A stretch of 64,000 nt of DNA from an uncultured Candidatus Saccharibacteria bacterium (GTDB taxonomy: Bacteria > Patescibacteriota > Minisyncoccia > Phycocordibacterales > UBA9973), in the NCBI GenBank assembly GCA_964622505.1, contig CAZUQJ010000002.1, positions 71,905-135,904 of the forward strand. Direction: 5' to 3'. A program made the translations under genes and the position numbers. The notes under the pieces were generated by a model. That model did not search any database. It was not told the origin of the DNA and worked only from the letters and a program-made list of their open reading frames with translations. Numbering within the stretch: the first letter of the stretch is position 1; each line of letters begins with the position of its first letter. Shown here piece by piece: positions 8,525-43,546 of this stretch.

Positions 8525-10117
8525 TTATTGATTAGTGCGAGGGCGGTATTGGAGGGCTTCTAGGATGTGGGGAATTTGGATGTGCTCGCTACTCTCTAGA
8601 TCGGCGATGGTGCGGGCGAGTTTGATGGTGCGGTGGTATGCGCGAGCAGAGAGTTGGAGATGCTCGGCACTCTGATTCAATATTTTCTTGACCTCGTCTG
8701 CGAGTGGTGCAAAAGTATTTAAATCTTTTGAATTCATATCGCTATTTGTTTTGATTTTTCTTGTAGCTTTTTTGAATCTTTTTTCTTGTATACTTCGTGC
8801 ATTTTTCACTCGACTCTTTATTATATTTGTCGGAGTGCTATTGAGATCTTTGCCCGAGAGTTCGTCGTAGCCGACGTTGCTGACGGTGACCCACATATCA
8901 ATACGGTCCATGATTGGCCCCGAAAGCTTGCGATTGTAGCGGTCCAGATCGGTTGGCTTACAAATGCACGCTTTCTGTTTGTTGCCTTTGTGTCCGCAAG
9001 GGCATGGGTTCATTGCAGCAATCAAAATAAAGTTGGAGGGGAATGTCGCTGAGCCTTTTGCACGCGAAATGGAGACGATGTTGTCTTCGAGTGGCTGGCG
9101 CAAAGATTCCAAAACACGTTTTTCAAATTCTGGAAATTCGTCCAGAAATAGGACGCCTTTGTGTGCGAGCGTCACTTCGCCAGGGCGTATATTTGCCCCA
9201 CCACCAATCATAGCGACATAGCTTGCAGTATGGTGTGGTGCACGAAATGGCGCATCGGTAATCAACTTGCCTTCAAGCATGCCAACGATAGAATGTATGC
9301 CAGTGATTTCTAAAATATCTTCGTTGTCGAGATCTGGAAGTATGTACGAAAATGCACGTGCAAGCATTGTCTTGCCAGTTCCTGGAGGACCCGATAGTGC
9401 AATGTTGTGTCCACCAGCGGCAGCGATTTCCAATCCCCTTTTGGCATTCTCTTGACCCTTCACATCTTGGAAATCGGTCCTATTTTCAACTACCGATTTT
9501 TCTATTATAGTTTTTGGGAATTTGGTAAGCTTTGGTTTCTCTTTCTCAAGCGGATTGCCTTTTTTGTCGTATCTAATTTTGTAAATATGATTGATCACTT
9601 CAATCAGAGTCTTTGCGCCATAAATGTCTATTCCATCTACAAGCCCCGCTTCTTCGGCATTGTCATAAGGCAAGAAAATTTCTTTGTAGCCCAAGCGTTT
9701 AGCCTCTTGTGTTAGTGGCAGAGCACCTTTTATAGGGCGGAGTTCCCCATTGAGTGACAACTCCCCGAGGAATACTCTACTTTCTGGGTCGAAATATGTT
9801 TGATTTGCAGAGAGCAAGTATGAGAGTGCTATACCTAGGTCGAAATACGACCCTTCTTTTTTCAAGTCAGCTGGCGAGAGTGATATGACCACCTTTTGAT
9901 TTTGGCTTTTTGGAGATTCGTAGCCAGAATTTTTGAGCGCAGAGCTCATGCGGTCTTTTGCTTCATCGACAGCTTTGTCGGGTAGCCCTACCATAGTAAA
10001 AGCGTGGAGAGTATTTGGAGTAATATCAACTTCTATCGTAACAATCTTGCCTTTTAGCATGTATGGTTGCGCCGCGTAGACTCTTGAGAATGACATAATA
10101 AATAGTATAGCAAACAA
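8525..10117 (-). CDS. comM: YifB/ComM family Mg-chelatase-like AAA+ ATPase
   Basis: Lon-like N-domain, Walker A LSGPPGTGKTMLARA, MNPCPCG zinc motif, C-terminal Mg-chelatase domain. Start may be the internal Met MSFSRVYAAQPYML. Confidence 0.9.
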   Translation of the reverse strand: MFAILFIMSFSRVYAAQPYMLKGKIVTIEVDITPNTLHAFTMVGLPDKAVDEAKDRMSSALKNSGYESPKSQNQKVVISLSPADLKKEGSYFDLGIALSYLLSANQTYFDPESRVFLGELSLNGELRPIKGALPLTQEAKRLGYKEIFLPYDNAEEAGLVDGIDIYGAKTLIEVINHIYKIRYDKKGNPLEKEKPKLTKFPKTIIEKSVVENRTDFQDVKGQENAKRGLEIAAAGGHNIALSGPPGTGKTMLARAFSYILPDLDNEDILEITGIHSIVGMLEGKLITDAPFRAPHHTASYVAMIGGGANIRPGEVTLAHKGVLFLDEFPEFEKRVLESLRQPLEDNIVSISRAKGSATFPSNFILIAAMNPCPCGHKGNKQKACICKPTDLDRYNRKLSGPIMDRIDMWVTVSNVGYDELSGKDLNSTPTNIIKSRVKNARSIQEKRFKKATRKIKTNSDMNSKDLNTFAPLADEVKKILNQSAEHLQLSARAYHRTIKLARTIADLESSEHIQIPHILEALQYRPRTNQ

Positions 10118-10674: not shown

Positions 10675-11559
10675 CTACAAAGGCTTGGCGTTTTGAGTGC
10701 GTAGTCTCTTGATCGCCTCCACGATTACCTCTTTGTTGTCGGAGATCATGTATAGGTTTTGATTTATAAATACAGAGTAGATCAAAGGCTCGTTGTCGGT
10801 GCCAGTCAGCACCCGTGCGTCGGTATTGTTGATAACAGTATCTTCAAATGATTTTTGCAGAAGGACTTTTTTGTTCCCACTGATATTGATACCAAAGATT
10901 GTAGAGAATTCATCGAGGATTGTTTTCTCCCAAGCATATGACCCTGCCACAGCTTGGTCGTATGATGGTGATTTGAAGATAAAGAAAGTGCCTGTCTTGG
11001 CTTCTGCGTTTTGGCGGTACAAGCCGATCATAAAATTTGAATCCAATGACCTTTTAAATGAGCTCGGTATACTACTACCAACTGTCTCTAGGAAGTCTGT
11101 AGCACTGAGAGTTTTTTGTCCACCGATAGTAAAGACCACAGATTCGACAAGACCATTTTTATTTTTTGCGCGCTCCTCTCCCAGCACTCTTACTAAGTCC
11201 TCTCGGCCGGCAATAGTATCAGCCGGCAGAAGTGTCTGTGTGTCGCTTGGGATCAGCGTGGGAATTCCGGTTACTATTTCTGGATGAGTTGCTTCTATCT
11301 TGCCTTTCTTGTTGAGGTACTTGAATACAAATATTGCGCCTACAATAAGTATGATCGAGCAGATACCAAATACCAAAGCATAATTCTTTTGTTTTGTTGC
11401 TGTCTGCTTTTGAACTTCCCCTTCGCGACGACGTTGCTCGGCCATAGCGATCTTGATCACCGAGGCTTCGTTGTCGCGCACCATACTTGCCATATCGCCT
11501 GCATAGGTGTGTATGGTTTGTGACTTTTTATTTAGATTGATGTTATTTTGTTCGTCCAT
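10675..11559 (-). CDS. Hypothetical single-pass membrane protein
   Basis: TM helix YALVFGICSIILIVGAIFVF after a ~60 aa N-terminal segment; overlaps the pnp stop by 17 nt, implying co-transcription. Confidence 0.55.
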   Translation of the reverse strand: MDEQNNINLNKKSQTIHTYAGDMASMVRDNEASVIKIAMAEQRRREGEVQKQTATKQKNYALVFGICSIILIVGAIFVFKYLNKKGKIEATHPEIVTGIPTLIPSDTQTLLPADTIAGREDLVRVLGEERAKNKNGLVESVVFTIGGQKTLSATDFLETVGSSIPSSFKRSLDSNFMIGLYRQNAEAKTGTFFIFKSPSYDQAVAGSYAWEKTILDEFSTIFGINISGNKKVLLQKSFEDTVINNTDARVLTGTDNEPLIYSVFINQNLYMISDNKEVIVEAIKRLRTQNAKPL

Positions 11560-19480: not shown

Positions 19481-20689
19481 TTACCAAACTTTCTTTATTA
19501 TCTCTATTGCTTTGTCGATATCTTGGGTGGTGTGTAGGGCCGAGAGTTGGAATCGGATCCTTGCCTCCCCTTCTGGGACTACTGGGAATGAGAGTGATGT
19601 TGCGTAAATGCCGTTTTCAAAAAGCTTTTTACTCAAGTCGCTCGCTTTTGTGGCGTCGCCGATCATCAATGGTACTATGGCATGACTGCCAGCCAATGTT
19701 GGCCAATTATTTTCTTCCAATTTGCTTCGGAAGTACAAGGCATTTTCTTTTACTTTTTTAGTGAGTGCGTTGTCGGCTTCGAGCATATCGAGTCCAGCAA
19801 TACCTGCGTTTACAATCGATGCTGGCACAGCGTTGGAGAATAGGTAGGTGCGGGACTTTTGGCGGAGTAGATCAACGAGAGATTTCTTGCCACCAATGTA
19901 TCCGCCGATGGCGCCACCGAGAGCTTTGCCAAGTGTTCCGGATATAATATCAATCTTTCCAAATACATTTTGTGCCTCAGGTGTGCCACGACCAGTCTCG
20001 CCCGCAACGCCGATGCCGTGTGCGTCGTCTACAAATAGTAGCGCCTCGTATTTCTCTGCGAGTTCGATTAATTTTGGTAGATTCGCCATTGTGCCCTCCA
20101 TGCTAAATATGCCGTCGGTCACAATTATTTTATTTCTATACCCCTTCTCTTTATCCTCTTCTAAAAATTGTTCAAGCATGTCCACATTTCCGCCTTTGTA
20201 AATTCTTTTATCCAAATTTTCTTTTTTACAGAGCTTGAATGCGTCGATGATAGATGCATGATTGTTGGCATCGCTGTAGATAACATCTTTCCAGGGCTCT
20301 GTACTCCCAAATGGTTCATTTACAAGGGTCGCAAATAATCCGAGGTTGGACATGAAGTTTGTAGAATATAATATTACATCCTCTGTTCCGATGAACTTCG
20401 CAATCCTTTGCTCCAAGTCTCGGTGGATTGTCTGTGTGCCAGAGAGGAATCGAACCGATGCCGTGCCGAAGCCAAATTTGTCCATGCCTTCTTTGGCTGC
20501 TTCGATAAGCTTTGGGTGATTGGCAAGACCAAGATAGTTGTTGGATGCGAACATGATCATCTCTTTGCCATCTACAACCACATGTGTTCCCTGCGCACCC
20601 TCAATGAGTCGCTCAGTTTTATACTTGCCATTATCCGCAATAGCTTTTAAATCCCCCTCTATTTGATCTGTAATTTTTTTTGTATACAT
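19481..20689 (-). CDS. kbl: Glycine C-acetyltransferase / 2-amino-3-ketobutyrate CoA ligase
   Basis: Collinear with E. coli Kbl: NNYLGLANHP, SVRFLSGTQ, PLP-lysine motif GTLGKALGGAIGGY, FSNA. Confidence 0.9.
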   Translation of the reverse strand: MYTKKITDQIEGDLKAIADNGKYKTERLIEGAQGTHVVVDGKEMIMFASNNYLGLANHPKLIEAAKEGMDKFGFGTASVRFLSGTQTIHRDLEQRIAKFIGTEDVILYSTNFMSNLGLFATLVNEPFGSTEPWKDVIYSDANNHASIIDAFKLCKKENLDKRIYKGGNVDMLEQFLEEDKEKGYRNKIIVTDGIFSMEGTMANLPKLIELAEKYEALLFVDDAHGIGVAGETGRGTPEAQNVFGKIDIISGTLGKALGGAIGGYIGGKKSLVDLLRQKSRTYLFSNAVPASIVNAGIAGLDMLEADNALTKKVKENALYFRSKLEENNWPTLAGSHAIVPLMIGDATKASDLSKKLFENGIYATSLSFPVVPEGEARIRFQLSALHTTQDIDKAIEIIKKVW

Positions 20690-20820
20690 ATATATAAGTA
20701 GTTAAAAAATTTTACTTCGCATATCTTTTTCGAGGGTACTCAAATTTTTTGCTAAAAATTTGCTCAGTTCTCCGACCGTCGTCGTCCGAAGCCCCTCAAA
20801 AAGATACGCGTGCGACAATT

Positions 20821-23264: not shown

Positions 23265-24224
23265 TTAGTTTAATTCTTCGTAAAACACCAGGTCTTGCCT
23301 TGTGGGGCATGTTGCGTCTGGTGTGGTGATTTTTTTACCCGAAACGTGGGTTGCAAAATGGATTGCTTTGCGGATATCATCGATAGTCGCTGTTGCAATG
23401 GATTTGTTCAGGTCTCCTAACTTGGCGATAAATGCTCCTTCGAAGCAGTCTCCGGCTGCGTTTTCAAAAATAGGTGCACCTTCTTCAAGATACTGCGTGC
23501 ACGCCTCAAAGCGTTCGACGGGGTGTCCCTTTAGCGAAAACATTCCTCCGTGTTTGGATTCTGTGACAATAATTAAGGTTGGTCCTCTCTTGTAAAGCAG
23601 TTTGTGTAATTCTGCTGGGGAAGTTTCCTTAAAAGCTTTGTACTCATCAGAATTGACGATCAAAAAGTCAGTACACTTCAATAATTCTTTAAAGGGAGTA
23701 CTATTTTGGATAATTTCGGGTCGAGGATTTAAAACTCGGTTCCCGAAATGTCTGTTGAAAAAAGCTTTGATAAGCGGTATGTGCTGGTATCGAACCCCGG
23801 TACCTATGCGCCAAGTGCCGCCTTCCATCCGGTGTATTTCCTCTATCGTTTTATCAACTTTTTTCTGAATAACTTCGTTTTTTAGACATCTCGATTTTGT
23901 GCTGATGTATAAATCATCAGTAGGGATAATCGTAAAGTCACTTGAGGTCAGAATAGGAAATTCCACATAAGGAATCTTGGATTTTTTCAGCAGAAAATTT
24001 AGCAAGTGTTTTTCTGGATTCTTCTCGCGCCCCGTGAGGGCGAACAATTTGCTTTCGTGACCAAGCGTATGAATTGCTCTAGCCACATTAGCAGAAGTTC
24101 CGGCGAGGCCGAATTTAACTTCCTCCAAAGTACCTTTTTCACTGGTAGCTGGACCAAATTTTTGTTGCATTTCTGTGTTTACAGAGAAACCAACGTCAGC
24201 GGTAATAATGTTTCTAGGTTGCAT
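23265..24224 (-). CDS. PfkB/ribokinase-family carbohydrate kinase
   Basis: N-terminal GGTSANVA and C-terminal anion-hole motif NAAGDCFEGAF (DTxGAGD-like). Confidence 0.7.
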   Translation of the reverse strand: MQPRNIITADVGFSVNTEMQQKFGPATSEKGTLEEVKFGLAGTSANVARAIHTLGHESKLFALTGREKNPEKHLLNFLLKKSKIPYVEFPILTSSDFTIIPTDDLYISTKSRCLKNEVIQKKVDKTIEEIHRMEGGTWRIGTGVRYQHIPLIKAFFNRHFGNRVLNPRPEIIQNSTPFKELLKCTDFLIVNSDEYKAFKETSPAELHKLLYKRGPTLIIVTESKHGGMFSLKGHPVERFEACTQYLEEGAPIFENAAGDCFEGAFIAKLGDLNKSIATATIDDIRKAIHFATHVSGKKITTPDATCPTRQDLVFYEELN

Positions 24225-24291
24225 ATCGTTTCGTTTTTTTTAAGGTTAAACCATTTTTCTTCATTATATCCTTATTTTTGCCGAAATCAAG

Positions 24292-24329
24292 CACTAAAAA
24301 TCCCCCACGTTGTGGGGGATTTTTAGTGC
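24292..24329. terminator. Long perfect hairpin agcactaaaaatccccca-cgttg-tgggggatttttagtgct
   Basis: 18-bp perfect stem directly downstream of the NYN-domain gene stop. Confidence 0.6.
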
Positions 24330-24332
24330 TTT

Positions 24333-24833
24333 TTATCTCATCAAATACTTTTTTGGATTTTTTGAAAGGTCAAAGAAGTCGTCGGCAACGTCCTTGAGTT
24401 TCATAGAGGTTGATTTATCAAAGGAAACGACTTCTACTTGTATAAGACGTGCCTGGAGGTACTCGACGAGCGGAATGAAGTCTCCATCCCCGGTTACGAG
24501 TACGACTGCGTCGAGACGAGAGGACATTTTGATTACATCAACAGTAATTCCTACATCCCAATCCCCTTTTTTCGCACCACCACCAAAAATCTGCAATTCT
24601 TTTGTTTTTGTTTCGATGCCGAGCTTGATAAGTGCATCAAAAAAGTTTTTCTCATCTCCACCTTCGCTTGATATCACATAGGCTGTGGCACGGACAAGCT
24701 TCCTGTCTGCTAAAGAGTCTTTTAGTACTTGGCCGAAGTTTACTTTTCTTTTATATAAATTTTTTGCGCTGTGATATAGATTTGATGTATCTATAAATAC
24801 TCCCACGCGTTGATCTTTGTGTTTGATTACCAT
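24333..24833 (-). CDS. NYN/LabA-like (PIN-fold) domain protein
   Basis: VFIDTSNLY...DVGITVDVI...VLVTGDGDFIPL match the NYN/DUF88 acidic motifs. Confidence 0.7.
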   Translation of the reverse strand: MVIKHKDQRVGVFIDTSNLYHSAKNLYKRKVNFGQVLKDSLADRKLVRATAYVISSEGGDEKNFFDALIKLGIETKTKELQIFGGGAKKGDWDVGITVDVIKMSSRLDAVVLVTGDGDFIPLVEYLQARLIQVEVVSFDKSTSMKLKDVADDFFDLSKNPKKYLMR

Positions 24834-24845
24834 ATATTTTTATTA

Positions 24846-24886
24846 TACCAAAATCAAAACATCTCGACTAATCGAGATGTTTTGAT
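24846..24886. terminator. Long perfect hairpin aaaatcaaaacatctcga-ctaa-tcgagatgttttgatttt
   Basis: 18-bp stem immediately after the rpsO stop. Confidence 0.6.
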
Positions 24887-24887
24887 T

Positions 24888-25154
24888 TTATGCTGTTGCT
24901 TTTAGTTTCTTTGAGACTAATGTGTGGCGAGCTTTGTCGGACTTCTCTAGATGTTTGAGGTGAGTACGGCGGTCAGCTACCATCTTGATCAAACCACGGC
25001 GTGAGTGGTTGTCTTTCTTGTGTTTCTTCAAGTGTAATGCCAATTCGTCGATACGAACACTGATCATAGCGATCTGCACTTCTGGAGATCCTGTATCTTT
25101 GTCGTGAATCTGATTTTTCTTTATTATTGTCGCCTTTTTCTTTGCTTTTAACAT
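24888..25154 (-). CDS. rpsO: 30S ribosomal protein S15
   Basis: MLKAKKKATIIKKNQIHDKDTGSPEVQIAMISVRIDELALHLKKHKKDNHSRRGLIKMVADRR... is collinear with S15; ORF opens at 25274 but start taken at ATG 25154. Confidence 0.9.
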   Translation of the reverse strand: MLKAKKKATIIKKNQIHDKDTGSPEVQIAMISVRIDELALHLKKHKKDNHSRRGLIKMVADRRTHLKHLEKSDKARHTLVSKKLKATA

Positions 25155-25204
25155 ATTGCATATATTAGCACAGAATGGATTTTTTTGCAAGACCTTGTTG
25201 AGTT

Positions 25205-25250
25205 TTGTAAGGTCGGTCCTTAAGGGAGCCCAAGGACCGACCTTGGGTAA
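25205..25250. repeat. Palindromic element copy A: ggtcggtcctt-aagggagccc-aaggaccgacc
   Basis: 11-bp perfect inverted arms around core aagggagccc, between the rpsO and trpR-like genes; related copies at 28558-28593 and 33815-33848. Confidence 0.65.
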
Positions 25251-25321
25251 AAATGAGCAATAAAAGTTATCCACATACTTTACTTGACTAAAGTACTTTA
25301 GTTTGATAAAGTGGGTAGGTA

Positions 25322-25678
25322 ATGGAATTTAATTGGAAAACACAACCAAATAAAGAATTAGTGGATGCATTCCTCTCTCTTTCCTCGCGTGAGGAGGCCG
25401 AGCGCTTTCTCCGCGACTTGATGACCGAAGGCGAGATCACTGAATTCGCCAAGCGCTTGCAAACAGCTGAACTCCTTTCTGCTAAAGTCCCCTACTCTAC
25501 TATCGAACGTGAAACTGGTTTCTCGTCGACGACCGTGGCACGAGTATCGAAGTGGTTATCCAAAGGTACCGGAGGCTATAAAGAAATAATTACAAAACTT
25601 GGTTCGACCAAGCTCACCACAAGTCATCATCACAATCCATCCAAAATTGGGAAAGGATTGTCTTTGACGCGTACATAA
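25322..25678 (+). CDS. TrpR-like YerC/YecD family DNA-binding protein
   Basis: REEAERFLRDLMTEGEITEFAKRLQTAELL...STIERETGFSSTTVARVSKWL...GGYKEII is collinear with the YerC/TrpR helix-turn-helix core. Confidence 0.7.
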   Translation: MEFNWKTQPNKELVDAFLSLSSREEAERFLRDLMTEGEITEFAKRLQTAELLSAKVPYSTIERETGFSSTTVARVSKWLSKGTGGYKEIITKLGSTKLTTSHHHNPSKIGKGLSLTRT

Positions 25679-25770
25679 TTGTATCTACCTCGAAACCAAC
25701 CCCTTCTCAATTTTGAGGAGGGGTTTTGTTTTGTCCCTAACAAAATAACAGTTCTTTAAAATTGTATTTG

Positions 25771-25811
25771 GTTGGTTACATAAGTTTTTCCTGAGAATTT
25801 ATGTAACCAAC
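25771..25811. promoter_or_regulatory. 13-bp perfect inverted repeat gttggttacataa-N15-ttatgtaaccaac upstream of methyltransferase gene
   Basis: Exact reverse-complement arms 25771-25783 and 25799-25811, 16 nt before the ATG at 25827. Confidence 0.5.
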
Positions 25812-25826
25812 TAAATATTAAATAAA

Positions 25827-26717
25827 ATGGAAAATTCAAAAGAGTACTTAAAAGGTATCGTTGCCCTGCTACAACAAAATGTACGCGTTGAAGTTAGTGA
25901 CGCAACTAATTACACAGATGAAGCAAAATACAGCCAGCTTCAAAAAGTTGAAAACGAAAGAAAGGATATAACCAAAATCCTGAAAACACACATTATTCAA
26001 GATCCGGAATCCAGGTACAATCTTGAATATTCAACAGCAAAAGAACTATCCATCCTAACTGGACAAGAAAGCTCTTTTGAAGGAACACACTACTGGTTTT
26101 ATTCCCCGATTCTTGAACCAAATATTTTGTATGTAATCCTAGAAATGAGTGAAACAAAAATTGCACCTTGTAGAATTCTTACAGAAAAAGAAAACAGGAT
26201 TTTAAAATCAAGAATCATAGATATTGGTTGCGGGAACGGACTACTTCTTGAAAAACTTTCCTTGCTAGGAGTACAGAGACATCGACTTGTTGGTATAGAC
26301 ATCTCTGAACAAGCAGTTAAGAGGGTGTGTAAAATGTTTCCAAGTATTTGTGGCAGGATTGAAAATCAAAAAGATTGGTTTGAAAATTTTGATTTTGTTT
26401 TTCTAAGCTATTTTGTAGACCGTGATGAAAACCAAAAAGAGACTTTCAAAAAAAGTGTCCAAACATTAAATTGGAAAGGTTTTTTGGTGCTTGAAGGACT
26501 TTTCCCGTGTGTATTATCCGACTCTAATGGAGTTTCTTATGGAGAAGCAAATGTGACAAAAGGTTTAGACCCCGTGGAAGACATTTTGTGCGTAGTGGAA
26601 GAATGTAAACGATTGAAGGTAGTTTTGAAAAAGATTATCGTCGGTCAACGACTTGTCTACAGCTTAGACGGTTCGGAAGTTCTCCCTACCTATATTCTTG
26701 TTTTTCAAAAAGAGTAA
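25827..26717 (+). CDS. Class I SAM-dependent methyltransferase
   Basis: Motif I IIDIGCGNGLLLEKL and downstream acidic motif II. Confidence 0.6.
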   Translation: MENSKEYLKGIVALLQQNVRVEVSDATNYTDEAKYSQLQKVENERKDITKILKTHIIQDPESRYNLEYSTAKELSILTGQESSFEGTHYWFYSPILEPNILYVILEMSETKIAPCRILTEKENRILKSRIIDIGCGNGLLLEKLSLLGVQRHRLVGIDISEQAVKRVCKMFPSICGRIENQKDWFENFDFVFLSYFVDRDENQKETFKKSVQTLNWKGFLVLEGLFPCVLSDSNGVSYGEANVTKGLDPVEDILCVVEECKRLKVVLKKIIVGQRLVYSLDGSEVLPTYILVFQKE

Positions 26718-26796
26718 GAAGTTCAAAATTAATTATTACCTGCGGCGGCACATGTCGTTGCAGGTTTTATTTTTATTAGTTAATAATTTTAAAAGT

Positions 26797-27534
26797 ATGT
26801 ATAAAAAAGAAAGAAAATTTAATAAAAAAATAGACGATAAAAACTGGCAAGTGTTATTTAACACGCATTTTCAGAGTATGCAGTCACTCGGCGCAGTGAG
26901 TACTATGTGGATCAACGGATTCTCGAAACTTGGTTTTGATAATTCACAAATGCCAACAGCAGAAGCGATAAATGAGGTTTCAAAAAAATATACCGGATAC
27001 ACTTTTATCCAAACAGACGAGCGGATTATTATTCCGCAACCAGAATGGTACACAATGGTGGCAAATTATCAGCTTCCCCTCTCCAACTTCTTGCGCACAC
27101 CAGAAGAGCTTGATTATTGCGATGAGCCGGATATTTGGCACGAGATCATGGGGCACGTTGCGTTCCTGATGAATAAAGATTATTCCGACATGTATCTGTC
27201 TCTCGCAAAATTGTATATCAAGGCGTACACCAAAGATCCAAAAAATGAAACAGGAATTCTAGATAAGGTTGATTTCCTGAGCGGATACCTGATCGAGCTT
27301 GGGTTGATCCAAGAGCCAACAGGATTAAAAGCATTTGGCTCGACATTGTATTCATCTGGAGAACTGCGAGAAGCCTTTAAACCAGAAAATCAAAAAAAGT
27401 TTTCTCTTGAAATTCTTGACCAAATCAAAGGTGTTCAAAATTACGACCGATCAGCATTTCAAGGTACTTATTACATTCTTGAGAGTTTGGATCAAATGAA
27501 TGAAGCTATAGAATATCTTTCAAAAAATATATAG
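26797..27534 (+). CDS. Biopterin-dependent aromatic amino acid hydroxylase (phenylalanine-4-hydroxylase-like)
   Basis: Iron-binding signature EPDIWHEIMGHVAFL and ...YLIELGLIQEPTGLKAFGSTLYSSGEL are collinear with PhhA; ORF opens at 26698 but start set at ATG 26797, which avoids overlap. Confidence 0.65.
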   Translation: MYKKERKFNKKIDDKNWQVLFNTHFQSMQSLGAVSTMWINGFSKLGFDNSQMPTAEAINEVSKKYTGYTFIQTDERIIIPQPEWYTMVANYQLPLSNFLRTPEELDYCDEPDIWHEIMGHVAFLMNKDYSDMYLSLAKLYIKAYTKDPKNETGILDKVDFLSGYLIELGLIQEPTGLKAFGSTLYSSGELREAFKPENQKKFSLEILDQIKGVQNYDRSAFQGTYYILESLDQMNEAIEYLSKNI

Positions 27535-27585
27535 ATTTATTGACAAACAGGTGTGAAATGGTAGGATTTAGAAAAAAGAAATATC

Positions 27586-28035
27586 ATGGAATCAAAAAAA
27601 ATTTTCACAATTTGTGCGGTAGCAGTGTTACTGTTTTCTGCTTATGCTCTCTATGTCATTGATACAATGACAGTACGAGGAGCCATTGTAATGATCGGCT
27701 TCTCTGTCACATTCTTTCTTTTAGGTGTTGCCTGGGGAAAATCTACTCTTTATTCTATTTCACCCAATAAAGAATATACTTATTGGGGTAGGGCTGGGGA
27801 ATTGATTTTCCTCCAAGATGATTATGAAGATATTCATAGTGCGTACTCTTTAAGTGATCAGCTTAGTAGTAGCCCTTTCGAGCCTAATTATTCTGAAGCA
27901 AATGATATCGTTGTTCAGAAAATTCAAAGGTTCAGAGTCTACAAAGCAACAGTATTGAACGGTGCCAGGTTACGTTTGGGTCAAAAGTGTATTGGCCTTG
28001 CAAATAACCAAATCAAAGGTAAAAAAAATAAATAA
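27586..28035 (+). CDS. Hypothetical membrane protein
   Basis: Two N-terminal TM helices; hairpin terminator aagcccacgta-gta-tacgtgggctt downstream. Confidence 0.4.
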   Translation: MESKKIFTICAVAVLLFSAYALYVIDTMTVRGAIVMIGFSVTFFLLGVAWGKSTLYSISPNKEYTYWGRAGELIFLQDDYEDIHSAYSLSDQLSSSPFEPNYSEANDIVVQKIQRFRVYKATVLNGARLRLGQKCIGLANNQIKGKKNK

Positions 28036-28141
28036 TATATTTTTAAAAAATTCTATAATATAAGCCCACGTAGTATACGTGGGCTTACTTTATGTTACAA
28101 TTATTGTACGACGCTTCGGCAGGCTCAGCGTAAAACACTAA

Positions 28142-29116
28142 ATGTTAAACAAATTAGAACAATTAAAAAGAGAATTTCTGGAGCATGTGGAGATCGAGCG
28201 TGGTAATAGTCTGCGCACGGTCCAGAATTACGATTACTATGTTTCGCGCTTTTTGGAGTTTGCCAAGATTTCTGAGCCGAAACAGATCACCGATGACAAA
28301 ATCCGTGAATTTCGTTTGCATCTAAATCGCCAAAACGGAGCCAAGATTCGTGGGCAAGTAGCGAGTAATATGAAAAAGAATACACAGAATTACCACCTCA
28401 TAGCTCTACGCATGTTTCTAAAATATCTTATGAAACGAGAAATCCCCTCCTTGCCTCCAGATCGAATAGAGCTCGCAAAGACTAAACAGCGGTCACTCGA
28501 CTTGATCTCGGTAGACGAGCTCACTCGCCTTTTGAATGCACCAATGCAAAATCCTGAGAGGTCCGACCTCAAGGGAGCCCGAGGTCCGACCTCTGGGGAT
28601 TCTGGGAGCAAAACTCTGCGTGACAAAGCAATCTTGGAATTATTTTTCTCTACTGGGCTTCGTTTGGCGGAGTTGTGTTCACTTGATCGTGACTTGGATT
28701 TATCACGAGACGATTTTTCTGTCCGTGGTAAAGGGGAAAAGGTGCGCGTGGTATTCCTAAGTGATTCTGCCAAAGATGCAATAAAAGCGTATTTAAAAAA
28801 CAGAAAGGATATGGATGCGCCGTTGTTTGTACAGAATTCTAAAAACAAAACAGGCACAGGTCGCCTGACTCCCCGCTCGATCGAGAGGATAGTGAAACAG
28901 TACGCGATCAAGGCCGGCATTTCTAAGAAAGTGACGCCACACGTGATCCGCCATAGCTTCGCCACGGACTTACTTTCCAATGGCGCTGACATTCGCTCGG
29001 TCCAAATGATGCTCGGCCATGCGAGCATTGTGACAACACAAATCTATACACACGTGACTGACTCACAGCTCCGCGATGTTCACAAGAAATTCCACAGCAA
29101 ATCAAAAGGTAAATAA
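28142..29116 (+). CDS. Tyrosine site-specific recombinase XerC/XerD family
   Basis: Catalytic-domain motifs LRDKAILELFFSTGLRLAEL, HVIRHSFATDLL, GHASIVTTQIYTHV; carries an extra ~17 aa between the LLNAP and LRDKA blocks. Confidence 0.9.
   Translation: MLNKLEQLKREFLEHVEIERGNSLRTVQNYDYYVSRFLEFAKISEPKQITDDKIREFRLHLNRQNGAKIRGQVASNMKKNTQNYHLIALRMFLKYLMKREIPSLPPDRIELAKTKQRSLDLISVDELTRLLNAPMQNPERSDLKGARGPTSGDSGSKTLRDKAILELFFSTGLRLAELCSLDRDLDLSRDDFSVRGKGEKVRVVFLSDSAKDAIKAYLKNRKDMDAPLFVQNSKNKTGTGRLTPRSIERIVKQYAIKAGISKKVTPHVIRHSFATDLLSNGADIRSVQMMLGHASIVTTQIYTHVTDSQLRDVHKKFHSKSKGK
28558..28593. repeat. Palindromic-family element copy B (gaggtccgacctc-aagggagccc-gaggtccgacctc) inside recombinase ORF, in frame
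   Basis: Same core aagggagccc and arm agg(t/a)ccgacc as copy A but with arms in direct orientation; encodes ...ERSDLKGARGPTS... in a loop that is ~7 aa in E. coli XerD. Confidence 0.6.
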
Positions 29117-37688: not shown

Positions 37689-37760
37689 TGCACCCGTCAG
37701 GACTCGAACCTGAAACGACTGTTCCGAAGACAGTAATGATATCCATTTCACCACGGGTGC
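37689..37760 (-). tRNA. tRNA-Arg (anticodon TCG)
   Basis: Cloverleaf checked by hand: 7-bp acceptor gcacccg/cgggtgc, D arm, anticodon stem actgt/acagt with loop cttcgga, T loop ttcgagt, discriminator A. Confidence 0.8.
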
Positions 37761-37897
37761 AAAATAATGGTTATTTGCGACCAATTCATTGTATACTAAA
37801 ACCTTAATTTAGTAAATAACATTATAAAATAAGGTTAATTTATCAAATTGCAATTTTTGTTTAAAATAGTTATAATCTATGAGTTATTTTGGCATTT

Positions 37898-37968
37898 GCG
37901 GGATTGGTTTAGTGGTAGAACACGTCCTTGCCAAGGATGAGACAGGAGTTCGATTCTCCTATCCCGCA
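37898..37968 (+). tRNA. tRNA-Gly (anticodon GCC)
   Basis: gcgggat acceptor, anticodon stem cgtcc/ggatg with loop ttgccaa, T arm ggagttcgattctcc; near-identical to E. coli tRNA-Gly(GCC). Confidence 0.85.
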
Positions 37969-38238
37969 CAAAATAAAAAATCCTCTGTCTTTAATCTGTC
38001 CGTTTATTTAAATAGAAAACTCTTTAAAATCAAGGAATATGTGGATAAGTATGTGTATTTAGGGTATAAGAGACACAACTTTCTTAAAGGCAATATGTCG
38101 GGCACACAAAGAAATTTACGTTTTAGGCTATGTAAAATAAGGTTATTTTATGAAAGACACATTAAAACAGACTTTTTATGTCTAATAAATAGCAAAACGT
38201 TTCACGTGACACATATTTAAGTGTTACACATGTAACAA

Positions 38239-38655
38239 ATGAAGAATTTTACTTCAAAAAGTCAAAAAATAGGGGAATTGGGTGAGGATGTTGCTTGCAA
38301 ATACCTTGAAAAACATGGTTTTGCTGTGTTGGAGCGTAATTATACAAAGAAATGGGGTGAAATAGATATTATTGCCAACAAAGAAGGGAAGTTGTATTTC
38401 ATAGAGGTTAAGTCTGTTTCTCGAGACCTAGATCATTTGAATTCAGCAGTAGAGAATGTTACACGTGGAACATTCCGGCCCGAAGAAAACATGCATCCTT
38501 GGAAAATGAAGCGCTTGGCTCGAACTGTAAGTACTTACTTGATACACAAAAGGATAGGGAACACACCGTGGCAATTCGACTTACTGGTTGTTTGTATCGA
38601 TATGAGTAAGAGGCTTGCCCGAGTAAAGGTTGTAGAGAATGTTATTTTAGGTTAA
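38239..38655 (+). CDS. yraN: YraN/UPF0102 family endonuclease
   Basis: GELGEDVACKYLEKHGFAVLERNYTKKWGEIDIIANKEGKLYFIEVKS matches the YraN core. Confidence 0.8.
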   Translation: MKNFTSKSQKIGELGEDVACKYLEKHGFAVLERNYTKKWGEIDIIANKEGKLYFIEVKSVSRDLDHLNSAVENVTRGTFRPEENMHPWKMKRLARTVSTYLIHKRIGNTPWQFDLLVVCIDMSKRLARVKVVENVILG

Positions 38656-38676
38656 AAAATTTGGTATAATAAAAAT

Positions 38677-39198
38677 ATGAATACTAATAATCAAAAAGGT
38701 ATAATAAAAAGTCTAGTTATTATTTTAGTGTTTGCTGTTGTTGTGTTTGTGTATGTACTCTATTTACAAGGTCAAGTAAAAAATGTGCGAGACGAAAGGA
38801 TTGTATTGGATAAAGATTTCACAAAGCAACTGCTATCTAACTGTGGTTTGACTATACAGCATCCAGTGAAAGATCAAAAAATAAGTACAACTACTGGTAT
38901 TGATATCTGGGCAGTGTTGGACAATACCAAGCGCGAAGCTCTTGGTTGCTCGTGGGTAGCCTTTGAGGCGCAAACTGGGGTAGTGTATGTAAAAGATGCT
39001 GACGGTAAAGATATTGCAACGCCTGCACCACTTACCACTATCGAAGAGTGGATGACAGAAAAAGCAGTAAATTATTCTACTCATGTTTCAATTTTGAACA
39101 ATTATACGGGTCCTGCGACGATAACAATCGAAGAAGAGAATCCGTCAGGGGAGAGACCTTCAAAAGTAATTTCTATCCCTATAATTATTGTTGAATAA
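38677..39198 (+). CDS. Hypothetical secreted/membrane-anchored protein
   Basis: N-terminal TM/signal (VIILVFAVVVFVYVLYL), no motifs. Confidence 0.45.
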   Translation: MNTNNQKGIIKSLVIILVFAVVVFVYVLYLQGQVKNVRDERIVLDKDFTKQLLSNCGLTIQHPVKDQKISTTTGIDIWAVLDNTKREALGCSWVAFEAQTGVVYVKDADGKDIATPAPLTTIEEWMTEKAVNYSTHVSILNNYTGPATITIEEENPSGERPSKVISIPIIIVE

Positions 39199-39290
39199 AA
39201 TAAAAACCCTTTTTTTATCTCCTAGCTCGAGAGTTGGGTGGCGATTGTTTTTTGCGTAAAATATGCTAATATAAAAGGATTGTTACGTTT

Positions 39291-39361
39291 CGGGGTGTAG
39301 TACACCGGTAGTATACGCGGTTTGGGACCGTGAGAACAGGGTTCAATTCCCTGCACCCCGA
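39291..39361 (+). tRNA. tRNA-Pro (anticodon TGG)
   Basis: All four stems pair (acceptor cggggtg/caccccg, anticodon stem cgcgg/ccgtg, loop tttggga, T loop ttcaatt). The overlapping 75-aa ORF 39222..39449 is spurious. Confidence 0.85.
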
Positions 39362-39520
39362 CAAGAAAATCCACGCAGTGGATTTTCGTTGGGGTGAGGA
39401 CATGAACTGCTTCATGTCCTTCAGGGAATTGAAAGATTTTTCCATACAAGCACAGCTTGGCGGAAAAATACCTGGCTATGTAGTAGCCAATTCCTTACCT
39501 TAAGAAAAATTTAATAATTT

Positions 39521-39591
39521 GCGGGATTAGTTTAGTGGTAGAACTACAGTTTTCCAAACTGTTGGCAAGAGTTCGATTCTCTTATCCCGCA
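39521..39591 (+). tRNA. tRNA-Gly (anticodon TCC)
   Basis: gcgggat acceptor, anticodon stem acagt/actgt with loop tttccaa, T arm agagttcgattctct. Confidence 0.85.
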
Positions 39592-41379: not shown

Positions 41380-41428
41380 TTAAAAGTAAAAAAGGTCCCG
41401 GAGGACCTTTGATAGCTGTTTAATATTT

Positions 41429-43156: not shown

Positions 43157-43490
43157 GGTTCCGCGTCGAATGATCGCTATCTATATTATTTATAATAATG
43201 GGTAGAGGAAAGTCCGAACATTTATTTCTAGAGTAATCTAGAGGAAGAGTAGCAGGTAATGCCTGTCTGGGGTAACCCAAGAGGTGCGAGCAGTGACGCC
43301 GATGCCGAAAGGCTAGGGCTCCTTCAGGAGTAATCGTATGGAAACATGCGGGTGAAACGGCTAAATCCTTACTTGAATGCAAGATCGTGCCTTTGCGTAA
43401 GCAGGGGAGAATCGCTTGAGCTATGTGGCGACACATGGCCCAGATAAATGATCATTTCAAACAGAATTCGGCTTATGAACGCGAAACACA
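43157..43490 (+). ncRNA. rnpB: RNase P RNA (reduced bacterial type)
   Basis: CR-I gaggaaagtccgaac, gggtgaaacggc block, CR-V acagaattcggcttat; P1 candidate guuccgcgu/acgcgaaac; ends are approximate. Confidence 0.7.
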
Positions 43491-43546
43491 TACGAAGACA
43501 CACGGCACCAAAGGCTGTGTGTTTTCATTTCTACTTATTAAGAAAA

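Follow-up and report, generated by a model that had tools for sequence, protein, structure and literature searches.

A dispersed family of palindromic repeats in Patescibacteria, with a probably selfish copy in frame inside a XerC/D-type recombinase gene

The stretch of DNA analyzed here (hereafter, the window) comprises 64,000 nucleotides of contig CAZUQJ010000002.1 from an uncultured Candidatus Saccharibacteria bacterium and encodes, at 28142–29116 on the plus strand, an intact 324-aa tyrosine recombinase of the XerC/D (XerA-type) family, whose open reading frame (ORF) runs through a 36-nt palindromic element, denoted E1, at 28558–28593. We conclude that E1 is probably a copy of a selfish palindromic DNA repeat, akin to repetitive extragenic palindromic (REP) sequences and Rickettsia palindromic elements (RPEs), that is tolerated in a disordered loop of the recombinase. 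The family to which E1 belongs is best described as a dispersed, apparently non-autonomous palindromic repeat in which two 13-bp arms enclose an asymmetric loop of 10 nt, often within a locus-specific outer stem, and which is widespread in Patescibacteria, the Candidate Phyla Radiation (CPR). These bacteria have tiny, gene-dense genomes that are regarded as poor in classical mobile DNA.

On the plus strand, the core of E1 reads GAGGTCCGACCTC-AAGGGAGCCC-GAGGTCCGACCTC, a 13-10-13 hairpin with the left arm at 28558–28570, the loop at 28571–28580, on the sense strand of the recombinase ORF, and the right arm at 28581–28593. The left arm is a 6+1+6 palindrome by itself and pairs with the right arm at 12 of the 13 positions. 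An intergenic copy, E2, is located at 25209–25244 (plus strand) and reads AAGGTCGGTCCTT-AAGGGAGCCC-AAGGACCGACCTT; it forms a perfect 13-bp hairpin because the center of its stem is a G-C pair where E1 has a C·C mismatch. A previous, sequence-only reading of this DNA had correctly described the sequence of E1 and the preservation of the reading frame across it, and had noticed the intergenic relative, although at 25211–25242, that is, with a shorter extent than the one found here. It had also held that the core and the arms are common to both copies, which is true of the 10-nt loop, identical in E1 and E2, but not of the arms: 29 of the 36 positions are alike, and the seven that differ, all in the arms, comprise the stem center and three pairs of positions changed in a compensatory manner. 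There are exactly two occurrences of the 22-nt core GNCCTYAAGGGAGCCCRAGGNC in the window, compared to no matches in 100 shuffles with 2 mismatches allowed. By itself, the bare 10-mer loop is not significant (2 occurrences with 1 mismatch allowed, against 2.09 expected).

Folding of 60-nt segments, with z-scores relative to shuffles, yielded −15.3 kcal/mol (z = −3.35) for E1 as DNA, −34.9 kcal/mol (z = −4.6) for E1 as RNA, and −14.6 kcal/mol (z = −5.8) for E2 as DNA. In both the DNA and the RNA folds of E1, the segment AATCCT (28550–28555, plus strand) pairs with GGGATT (28596–28601, plus strand), forming an outer stem that lengthens the hairpin to 52 nt. An orthologous locus, L002, retains this AATCC...GGGATT outer stem, and AAAATC.../...GATTTT outer stems are recurrent in Saccharibacteria copies and are also present in L135 and L141. 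The outer stem probably belongs to the inserted unit, which would then be longer than the 36 nt originally proposed; the insertion itself is supported, and its being tolerated and neutral is an inference. A candidate target-site duplication at E1, GCAAAATCCTG versus GCAAAACTCTG, matches at 9 of 11 positions, but the two segments are 61 nt apart and out of phase, and the match was judged to be due to chance. E1 and E2, 3.3 kb apart, are both solitary, without a repeat-spacer array; the 13-nt boxes never occur singly within the window, and a covariance model of the family recovers from the 64 kb, beyond E1 and E2, only generic terminator hairpins. The half-sites of the element are also seen in a gene-end hairpin at 41394–41412 of the window (AAGGTCC-CGGA-GGACCTT) and in a 30-nt perfect palindrome, AAAACATTCCGACCT|AGGTCGGAATGTTTT, located after rpsO at 9468–9497 of L001.

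The host protein, for which an identical entry exists at NCBI (P0001), is recognized by the NCBIfam models of XerA (238 bits, over the cut-off), XerD (234 bits) and XerC (227 bits), and matches XerA and XerD structures in the PDB (E-values from 1e-37 to 1e-31) in alignments that include the catalytic motifs R, HxxR, H and Y. Going by the names that its closest homologs bear, the organism is a CPR bacterium of the Nomurabacteria/Paceibacterota type. E1 is read in frame as (E139)RSDLKGARGPTS(151), the predicted peptides across it in the recombinase being ...NPERSDLK/GARGPTSGDSGSK... In an AlphaFold model of moderate quality (mean predicted local distance difference test score, pLDDT, 66), residues 140–152 are coil with a pLDDT below 50, placed between helices 124–136 and 153–171, and the solved XerA and XerD structures align with the protein only from residues 155–158, just past the insert. 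The E1 insert is thus predicted to occupy a disordered surface loop, in agreement with the placement suggested by the sequence-only reading. Such a location, together with the retained frame, would explain why the recombinase was left intact, and the persistence of E1 is likewise understandable given that its 36-nt core amounts to 12 codons, has no stop in the frame that is used, and adds to that disordered loop a hydrophilic peptide that is short and has many Gly, Ser, Pro and Arg residues.

Among 120 XerD orthologs with 75–84% identity, the corresponding stretch, delimited by the 'AP' and 'LRDKA' motifs, ranges from 7 residues (DTETPKG) up to about 34. The same arms, recognizable by RSDL...G.T peptides and separated by a 10-nt or longer loop, are present in about 35 of the 120, and several sequences resemble internally deleted remnants (for example, PEKSDKNKTSG). 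The DNA of four orthologs has both boxes at this position, partly decayed and with loops that differ. In a distance tree built with the variable loops left out and weakly resolved, the query clusters with P0002, P0003 and P0005, all three of which are without the element; its presence is patchy over the tree, other branches carrying different loops or a decayed form. The orthologous site is, accordingly, filled in some genomes and empty in others, which answers in the affirmative the question, raised by the sequence-only reading, of whether the insert is lineage-specific. It is very improbable that this loop is merely a native, fast-evolving segment of XerD in which the palindrome is coincidental or was formed in place, without any insertion. 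Hypervariability of both length and sequence, which the XerD family displays here even without the palindrome, is what such a scenario would predict, but it does not fit with the nearest orthologs being devoid of the element, with changes in the arms that alter the peptide while the complementarity of the DNA is kept, or with the reappearance of the 22-nt core elsewhere in the window, where none is expected by chance, and in dozens of unrelated genes and genomes.

The element recurs at another loop of XerD. In the window, this segment (SKNKTGTG, 28838–28861, plus strand) carries no element, and residues 233–237 of the model are of low confidence; in about 12 of the 120 orthologs, the same 13-10-13 element is found at this site, after FIQYSKN, encoding RSDLGSTRGTT, RSNLESTRGS and similar peptides, for example at 10702–10737 of L002 (GAGGTCGAACCTC-GAGAGCACCA-GAGGTTCGACCTC). 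An unrelated palindrome, CCCCTAAGC-AAG-GCTTAGGGG (peptide PKQGLG), is found in the same two XerD loops, along with single boxes such as GTCCAGGC-AAG-GCCTGGAC (SRQGLD), as seen in the xerD genes of L192 (3001–3978, both sites) and L001 (second site). Since the two loops hold different hairpins in different orthologs, they are permissive sites with repeated acquisition of hairpins.

The sequence-only reading had called for a search of the rest of the genome for the core of the repeat; further members of the family were found well beyond xerD, in dozens of unrelated housekeeping genes of Patescibacteria as well as in intergenic regions. When one genome per species was scanned with the arm pattern AGGTCNGNCCT-N12-AGGNCNGACCT, at least 120 loci were found. 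Among the 120 listed, 71 are labeled as CPR phyla, 13 as unnamed bacteria and 19 as other taxa, and 17 come from two termite-gut Spirochaetaceae metagenome-assembled genomes (MAGs); the CPR labels among these matches include Kaiser-, Nomura-, Sacchari-, Lipton-, Beckwith-, Moranii-, Portnoy-, Chisholm- and Doudnabacteria, and Paceibacterota. The pattern leaves four position pairs unconstrained; in the 99 distinct non-spirochaete copies, these show Watson-Crick complementarity in 96, 87, 78 and 92 cases, and the arm centers are identical in only 6, which identifies the unit as an inverted rather than a direct repeat, with the family consensus nAGGTCsGACCTn. The Spirochaetaceae matches were excluded from the family, being tandem direct 23-mers with identical centers in 24 of 25 and non-complementary ends. 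Each 23-nt unit of these arrays (L052, 5331–5635; also L006, L011 and L117) consists of CAGGTCAGACCTC, the same box as in the CPR element, plus 10 nt. A phage origin was likewise rejected, the arm pattern having 0 matches in 2.9 million viral contigs, as was a transposon bounded by two elements: ordinary genes, ddl and rpsP among them, are flanked by the pairs spaced 0.7–1.7 kb apart in L050 and L123.

About half of the arm-defined copies among the matches listed lie deep within long ORFs (coding status being judged by ORF length rather than gene calls), and other copies are found between genes, at gene ends. The coding copies make use of all three reading frames (RSDL..G.T, EVGP..RSDL and RGPTS..EVRP). 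The hosts identified with Pfam include TopA, LepA, LigA, UvrA, UvrB, UvrD/PcrA and RecJ, along with GatA, GatB, PheT, TGT, a class-I aminoacyl-tRNA synthetase, cysteine desulfurase and others. Pairwise alignments show inserts that are mostly about 12 aa long (from 8 to about 30) and face a partner ortholog without the insert; within UvrB, PheT, TGT and UvrD, the insertion sites differ between genomes. One hairpin copy lies near the N-terminus of a Saccharibacteria ORF (L013, 3–1691) in which a NYN domain is nested in a match to an intein splicing domain.

A complementary scan of metagenomes, in which the loop and 6 nt on each side were required, produced 71 hits in 68 stretches, 65 of them distinct. 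In all hits except L173, complementarity extends over 13 bp of the arms, beyond the 6 bp on each side that the search had set, and the arms come in several variants (AAGGTCsGACCTT, AAGGCAAGACCTT/AAGGTCTTGCCTT, GAGGACGGTCCTT and CCCGCCAGACCTT/AAGGTCTGGCGGG). In an ungapped alignment, 97.7% of the stem cells are paired, compared to 79.9% in shuffles, and double-sided changes account for 150 cells versus 37 in shuffles; 9 of the 13 pairs covary, and G·U occurs in only 3 of 858 cells. This near absence of wobble pairs suggests that strict Watson-Crick symmetry is maintained at the level of DNA rather than by selection of an RNA helix. Many copies have a locus-specific outer stem, with purine-rich internal loops, recurrently GGGAA / GAGGAG, between the outer stem and the core. 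The Saccharibacteria MAG CAZVEC01 contains at least 17 copies with a near-identical core of about 48 nt and compensated outer stems (AAAATCAnnC/GnnTGATTTT), and four copies reside on one 51-kb contig. The intergenic copies with GC-rich arms (CCCGCCAGACCTT...AAGGTCTGGCGGG), found at about 4580–4680 of L126 and about 4615–4700 of L155, and also in L129, L132, L134, L144, L157, L171, L179 and L189, are located downstream of genes and are often followed by a T-run in the manner of a terminator.

The distribution of these copies contains several features that weigh against a selfish, neutrally tolerated repeat. Of the 65 distinct loop-defined copies, 43 lie within ORFs of at least 150 aa, and among these coding copies the AAGGGAGCCC loop is on the sense strand in 38, where stop codons alone would lead one to expect about half; 32 of the 43 share one codon phase (the RSDLKGAxG.T frame, which is also that of E1), with the reservation that the strand and phase statistics are inflated by orthologous copies. 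Random neutral insertion would not generate such biases unless selection at the peptide level were strong. At orthologous sites, the 36-nt core may be identical while the 400-nt flanks are 58–83% identical. Moreover, the compensated arm variant AAGGCAAGACCTT/AAGGTCTTGCCTT is used by a whole lineage in several host genes, at least six in number, including a topA site where relatives have the standard arms, and such lineage-wide usage requires homogenization or re-invasion, or else points to selection. Simple neutral insertion does not account for this combination of orientation and phase bias with concerted arm changes. In addition, flanking direct repeats have a median length of 6 nt, the null value, which means that there is no general target-site duplication (the exceptions, L126 and L155, have direct repeats of 16–17 nt, and the one in L126 takes in the start of the downstream gene); no transposase or other mobilizing gene was noticed at the loci examined, where no search directed at REP-associated tyrosine transposases (RAYTs) was made; and no near-identical genomes with and without the element were captured, so that active mobility is something we infer.

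Several of these observations would be expected if the element were instead a functional hairpin in cis, acting as mRNA or DNA, recognized by a protein in trans and either positioned or kept in numerous informational genes, xerD among them. Among its possible roles are mRNA processing or stability, pausing of transcription or translation, and a binding site for a nucleoid protein or a nuclease. A hairpin of this kind would explain the conservation of the loop and the closing pairs over many lineages with a covarying outer stem, the sense-strand bias (38/43) and the phase bias (32/43), the identical cores within flanks of 58–83% identity, the lineage-wide and compensated arm switches, the recurrent GGGAA / GAGGAG internal loop and, in some copies, the terminator-like succession of a GC-rich stem and a T-run. 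We nevertheless regard it as unlikely. The scans demanded the loop or the arms, and the evidence of conservation is biased by this ascertainment, the apparent constancy of the core included. The element is patchy among close orthologs, with decayed or partly deleted copies; host genes and sites within genes vary between genomes; three frames are in use; G·U pairs (3/858) are unusually rare for a selected RNA helix; E2 is situated between divergent genes and upstream of where the promoter of the plus-strand gene is predicted; and no Rfam family matches, either in the whole window at the gathering threshold or in 24800–28800 at E-values up to 10, where only noise was obtained.

A selfish palindromic repeat therefore remains the reading that we favor, and a plausible course of events can be outlined for it. 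E1 would have entered, or been copied into, the loop that links two helices where the XerC/D catalytic domain begins. The family would spread and stay symmetric at the DNA level most plausibly because an enzyme acts in trans on a single-stranded DNA hairpin, and/or through conversion among the copies. Orthologous sites of L168 and L181 (in topA), and of L161/L154 and L142, have identical outer stems and inner arms that differ by three compensated changes, GTCGG/CCGAC versus GCAAG/CTTGC, a block change that suggests homogenization or replacement of the core. Copies would decay through point changes and internal deletions, and the element would be visible only where it is tolerated, that is, in surface loops of proteins and at gene boundaries, E2 being a copy presumably tolerated in a divergent intergenic region. 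A bolder form of the functional-hairpin alternative, to which we assign a low probability, is that the hairpins are the cis-sites of a CPR-wide trans-acting system in which a hairpin-specific DNA- or RNA-binding enzyme co-evolves in specificity with the stem. It would account for the fact that arm switches are lineage-wide and compensated, for the conservation of the asymmetric loop and for the recurrence of the GGGAA/GAGGAG internal loop, and the cis-sites would lie on the sense strand, in one codon phase, in replication, repair and translation genes, serving, for example, regulated mRNA processing or programmed nicking and restart on DNA.

The closest known parallels are the RPEs, palindromic elements that occur in frame in housekeeping genes of Rickettsia (PMC10969869) and are CGTC-tagged (PMC3733652). 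The CPR element shares with them the occurrence of a palindrome in frame in many unrelated housekeeping ORFs, an extra peptide compatible with the protein fold, and hosts with small, reduced genomes (PMC10969869, PMC3733652); the in-frame residence that characterizes RPEs is seen here, as preserved reading frames, in XerD, TopA, LigA, UvrA/B/D, RecJ, GatA/B, PheT, TGT and LepA. The differences are that RPEs are about 100–150 bp long, form ten families and are confined to Rickettsia, whereas the core of the CPR element measures 36 nt (in E1, 52 nt including the outer stem), and the element carries no tag, has no apparent sequence similarity to RPEs, with which it was compared by size and host rather than by an alignment of consensus sequences, and extends over many CPR phyla. 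REPs are similar in being palindromes of 20–40 nt that occur in many copies, often at gene ends, some of them in replication and repair genes, and lack target-site duplications; intragenic REPs with GTAG/CGTC tags are known, notably in uvrA, uvrB and recB, where they encode 20–30 extra residues (PMC3733652). Multiplicity of copies, another hallmark of REPs, is evident from the two elements in 64 kb, the 17 or more in the Saccharibacteria MAG and the four on the 51-kb contig. Unlike REPs, E1 and E2 have no GTAG or CGTC end tag, no GTAG/CTAC or CGTC/GACG tag being detected in or beside either of them, and whereas REPs are mostly extragenic, 43 of the 65 loop-defined copies of the CPR element are intragenic. 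The CPR palindromes, in short, work like RPEs and REPs but lack the features that define either class.

Other classes of elements are more distant. MITEs (miniature transposable elements with inverted repeats), such as Correia, ERIC and RUP, are likewise non-autonomous, have inverted arms and are sometimes intragenic and in frame (PMC10969869), but the CPR element is much shorter and has no general target-site duplication, only L126 and L155 showing repeats; no parent insertion sequence with matching ends was found, although no dedicated search for a box...transposase...box arrangement was made. The members that consist of CCCGCCAGACCTT, a loop and AAGGTCTGGCGGG followed by a T-run downstream of genes resemble intrinsic terminators, but E1 and E2 have no T-tail, E1 is located inside an ORF and E2 between divergent genes; terminator prediction does not call E2 and, around E1, yields only a weak minus-strand consensus match that touches the left arm. 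With the repeats of CRISPR arrays the element shares a length of 36 nt and a partly palindromic sequence, but its copies are solitary. Xer dif sites are about 28 bp long, with two 11-bp recombinase-binding arms around a 6–8-bp center, and are present once per replicon, in contrast to the 13-10-13 architecture of the element, its two copies within 3.3 kb and the 120 or more loci elsewhere. Full-text literature searches, with the sequence and with combinations of CPR and palindromic, MITE or REP, retrieved no description of the family, but their coverage is incomplete and an earlier description is possible.

The DNA uptake sequences and uptake signal sequences (DUS/USS) of naturally competent bacteria are likewise found inside ORFs and, at gene ends, as inverted pairs, and natural competence has reportedly been found in Patescibacteria. 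That the 13-nt box is such a DUS/USS-like or other genome-wide signal would be in keeping with the places where the boxes are found, namely ORFs and, in inverted pairs, the ends of genes, but it is hardly credible given a density that is far too low, at two elements per 64 kb, the absence of single boxes from the window, and the replacement of the boxes by non-box arms in members in which the loop stays.

If the interpretation of E1 as a tolerated selfish repeat is correct, the CPR palindromes would add to Rickettsia a second, independent instance of selfish DNA residing in coding regions, again in reduced genomes, and would account for part of the loop insertions and length variation of CPR proteins. 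In protein engineering and strain typing, the elements could then be used as natural markers of permissive loops, and the question would become which enzyme moves or homogenizes hairpins in hosts with few known transposases.

With regard to the genomic surroundings, E2 lies between the divergently oriented rpsO (minus strand, start at about 25154) and a trpR/yerC-like gene (plus strand, 25322–25678), the predicted promoter of which is downstream of E2. A role of E2 in the leader of the S15 gene, rpsO, was considered and discarded: in relatives, the rpsO gene beside xerD has quite different hairpins and no E2-like element. Long inverted repeats with arms of about 25 bp lie upstream of rpsO, in the place taken by E2 in the window, at about 9800–9945 of L001 and about 7750–7870 of L003. 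In L001 and L002, rpsO and xerD are direct divergent neighbors, and the window has four extra genes between them. Near 25 kb (about 24000–26000), the gene orientation turns from minus to plus, the GC skew changes sign, and a perfect DnaA box, TTATCCACA, is present at 25267–25275, 23 nt from E2; a replication origin at about 25 kb was rejected on the ground that no cluster of DnaA boxes exists there. Three one-mismatch DnaA boxes and an AT-rich palindrome are found at 20208–20715. The window further encodes four tRNA genes at 37689–39591 and, at 43158–43491, a bacterial class A RNase P RNA (114.6 bits).

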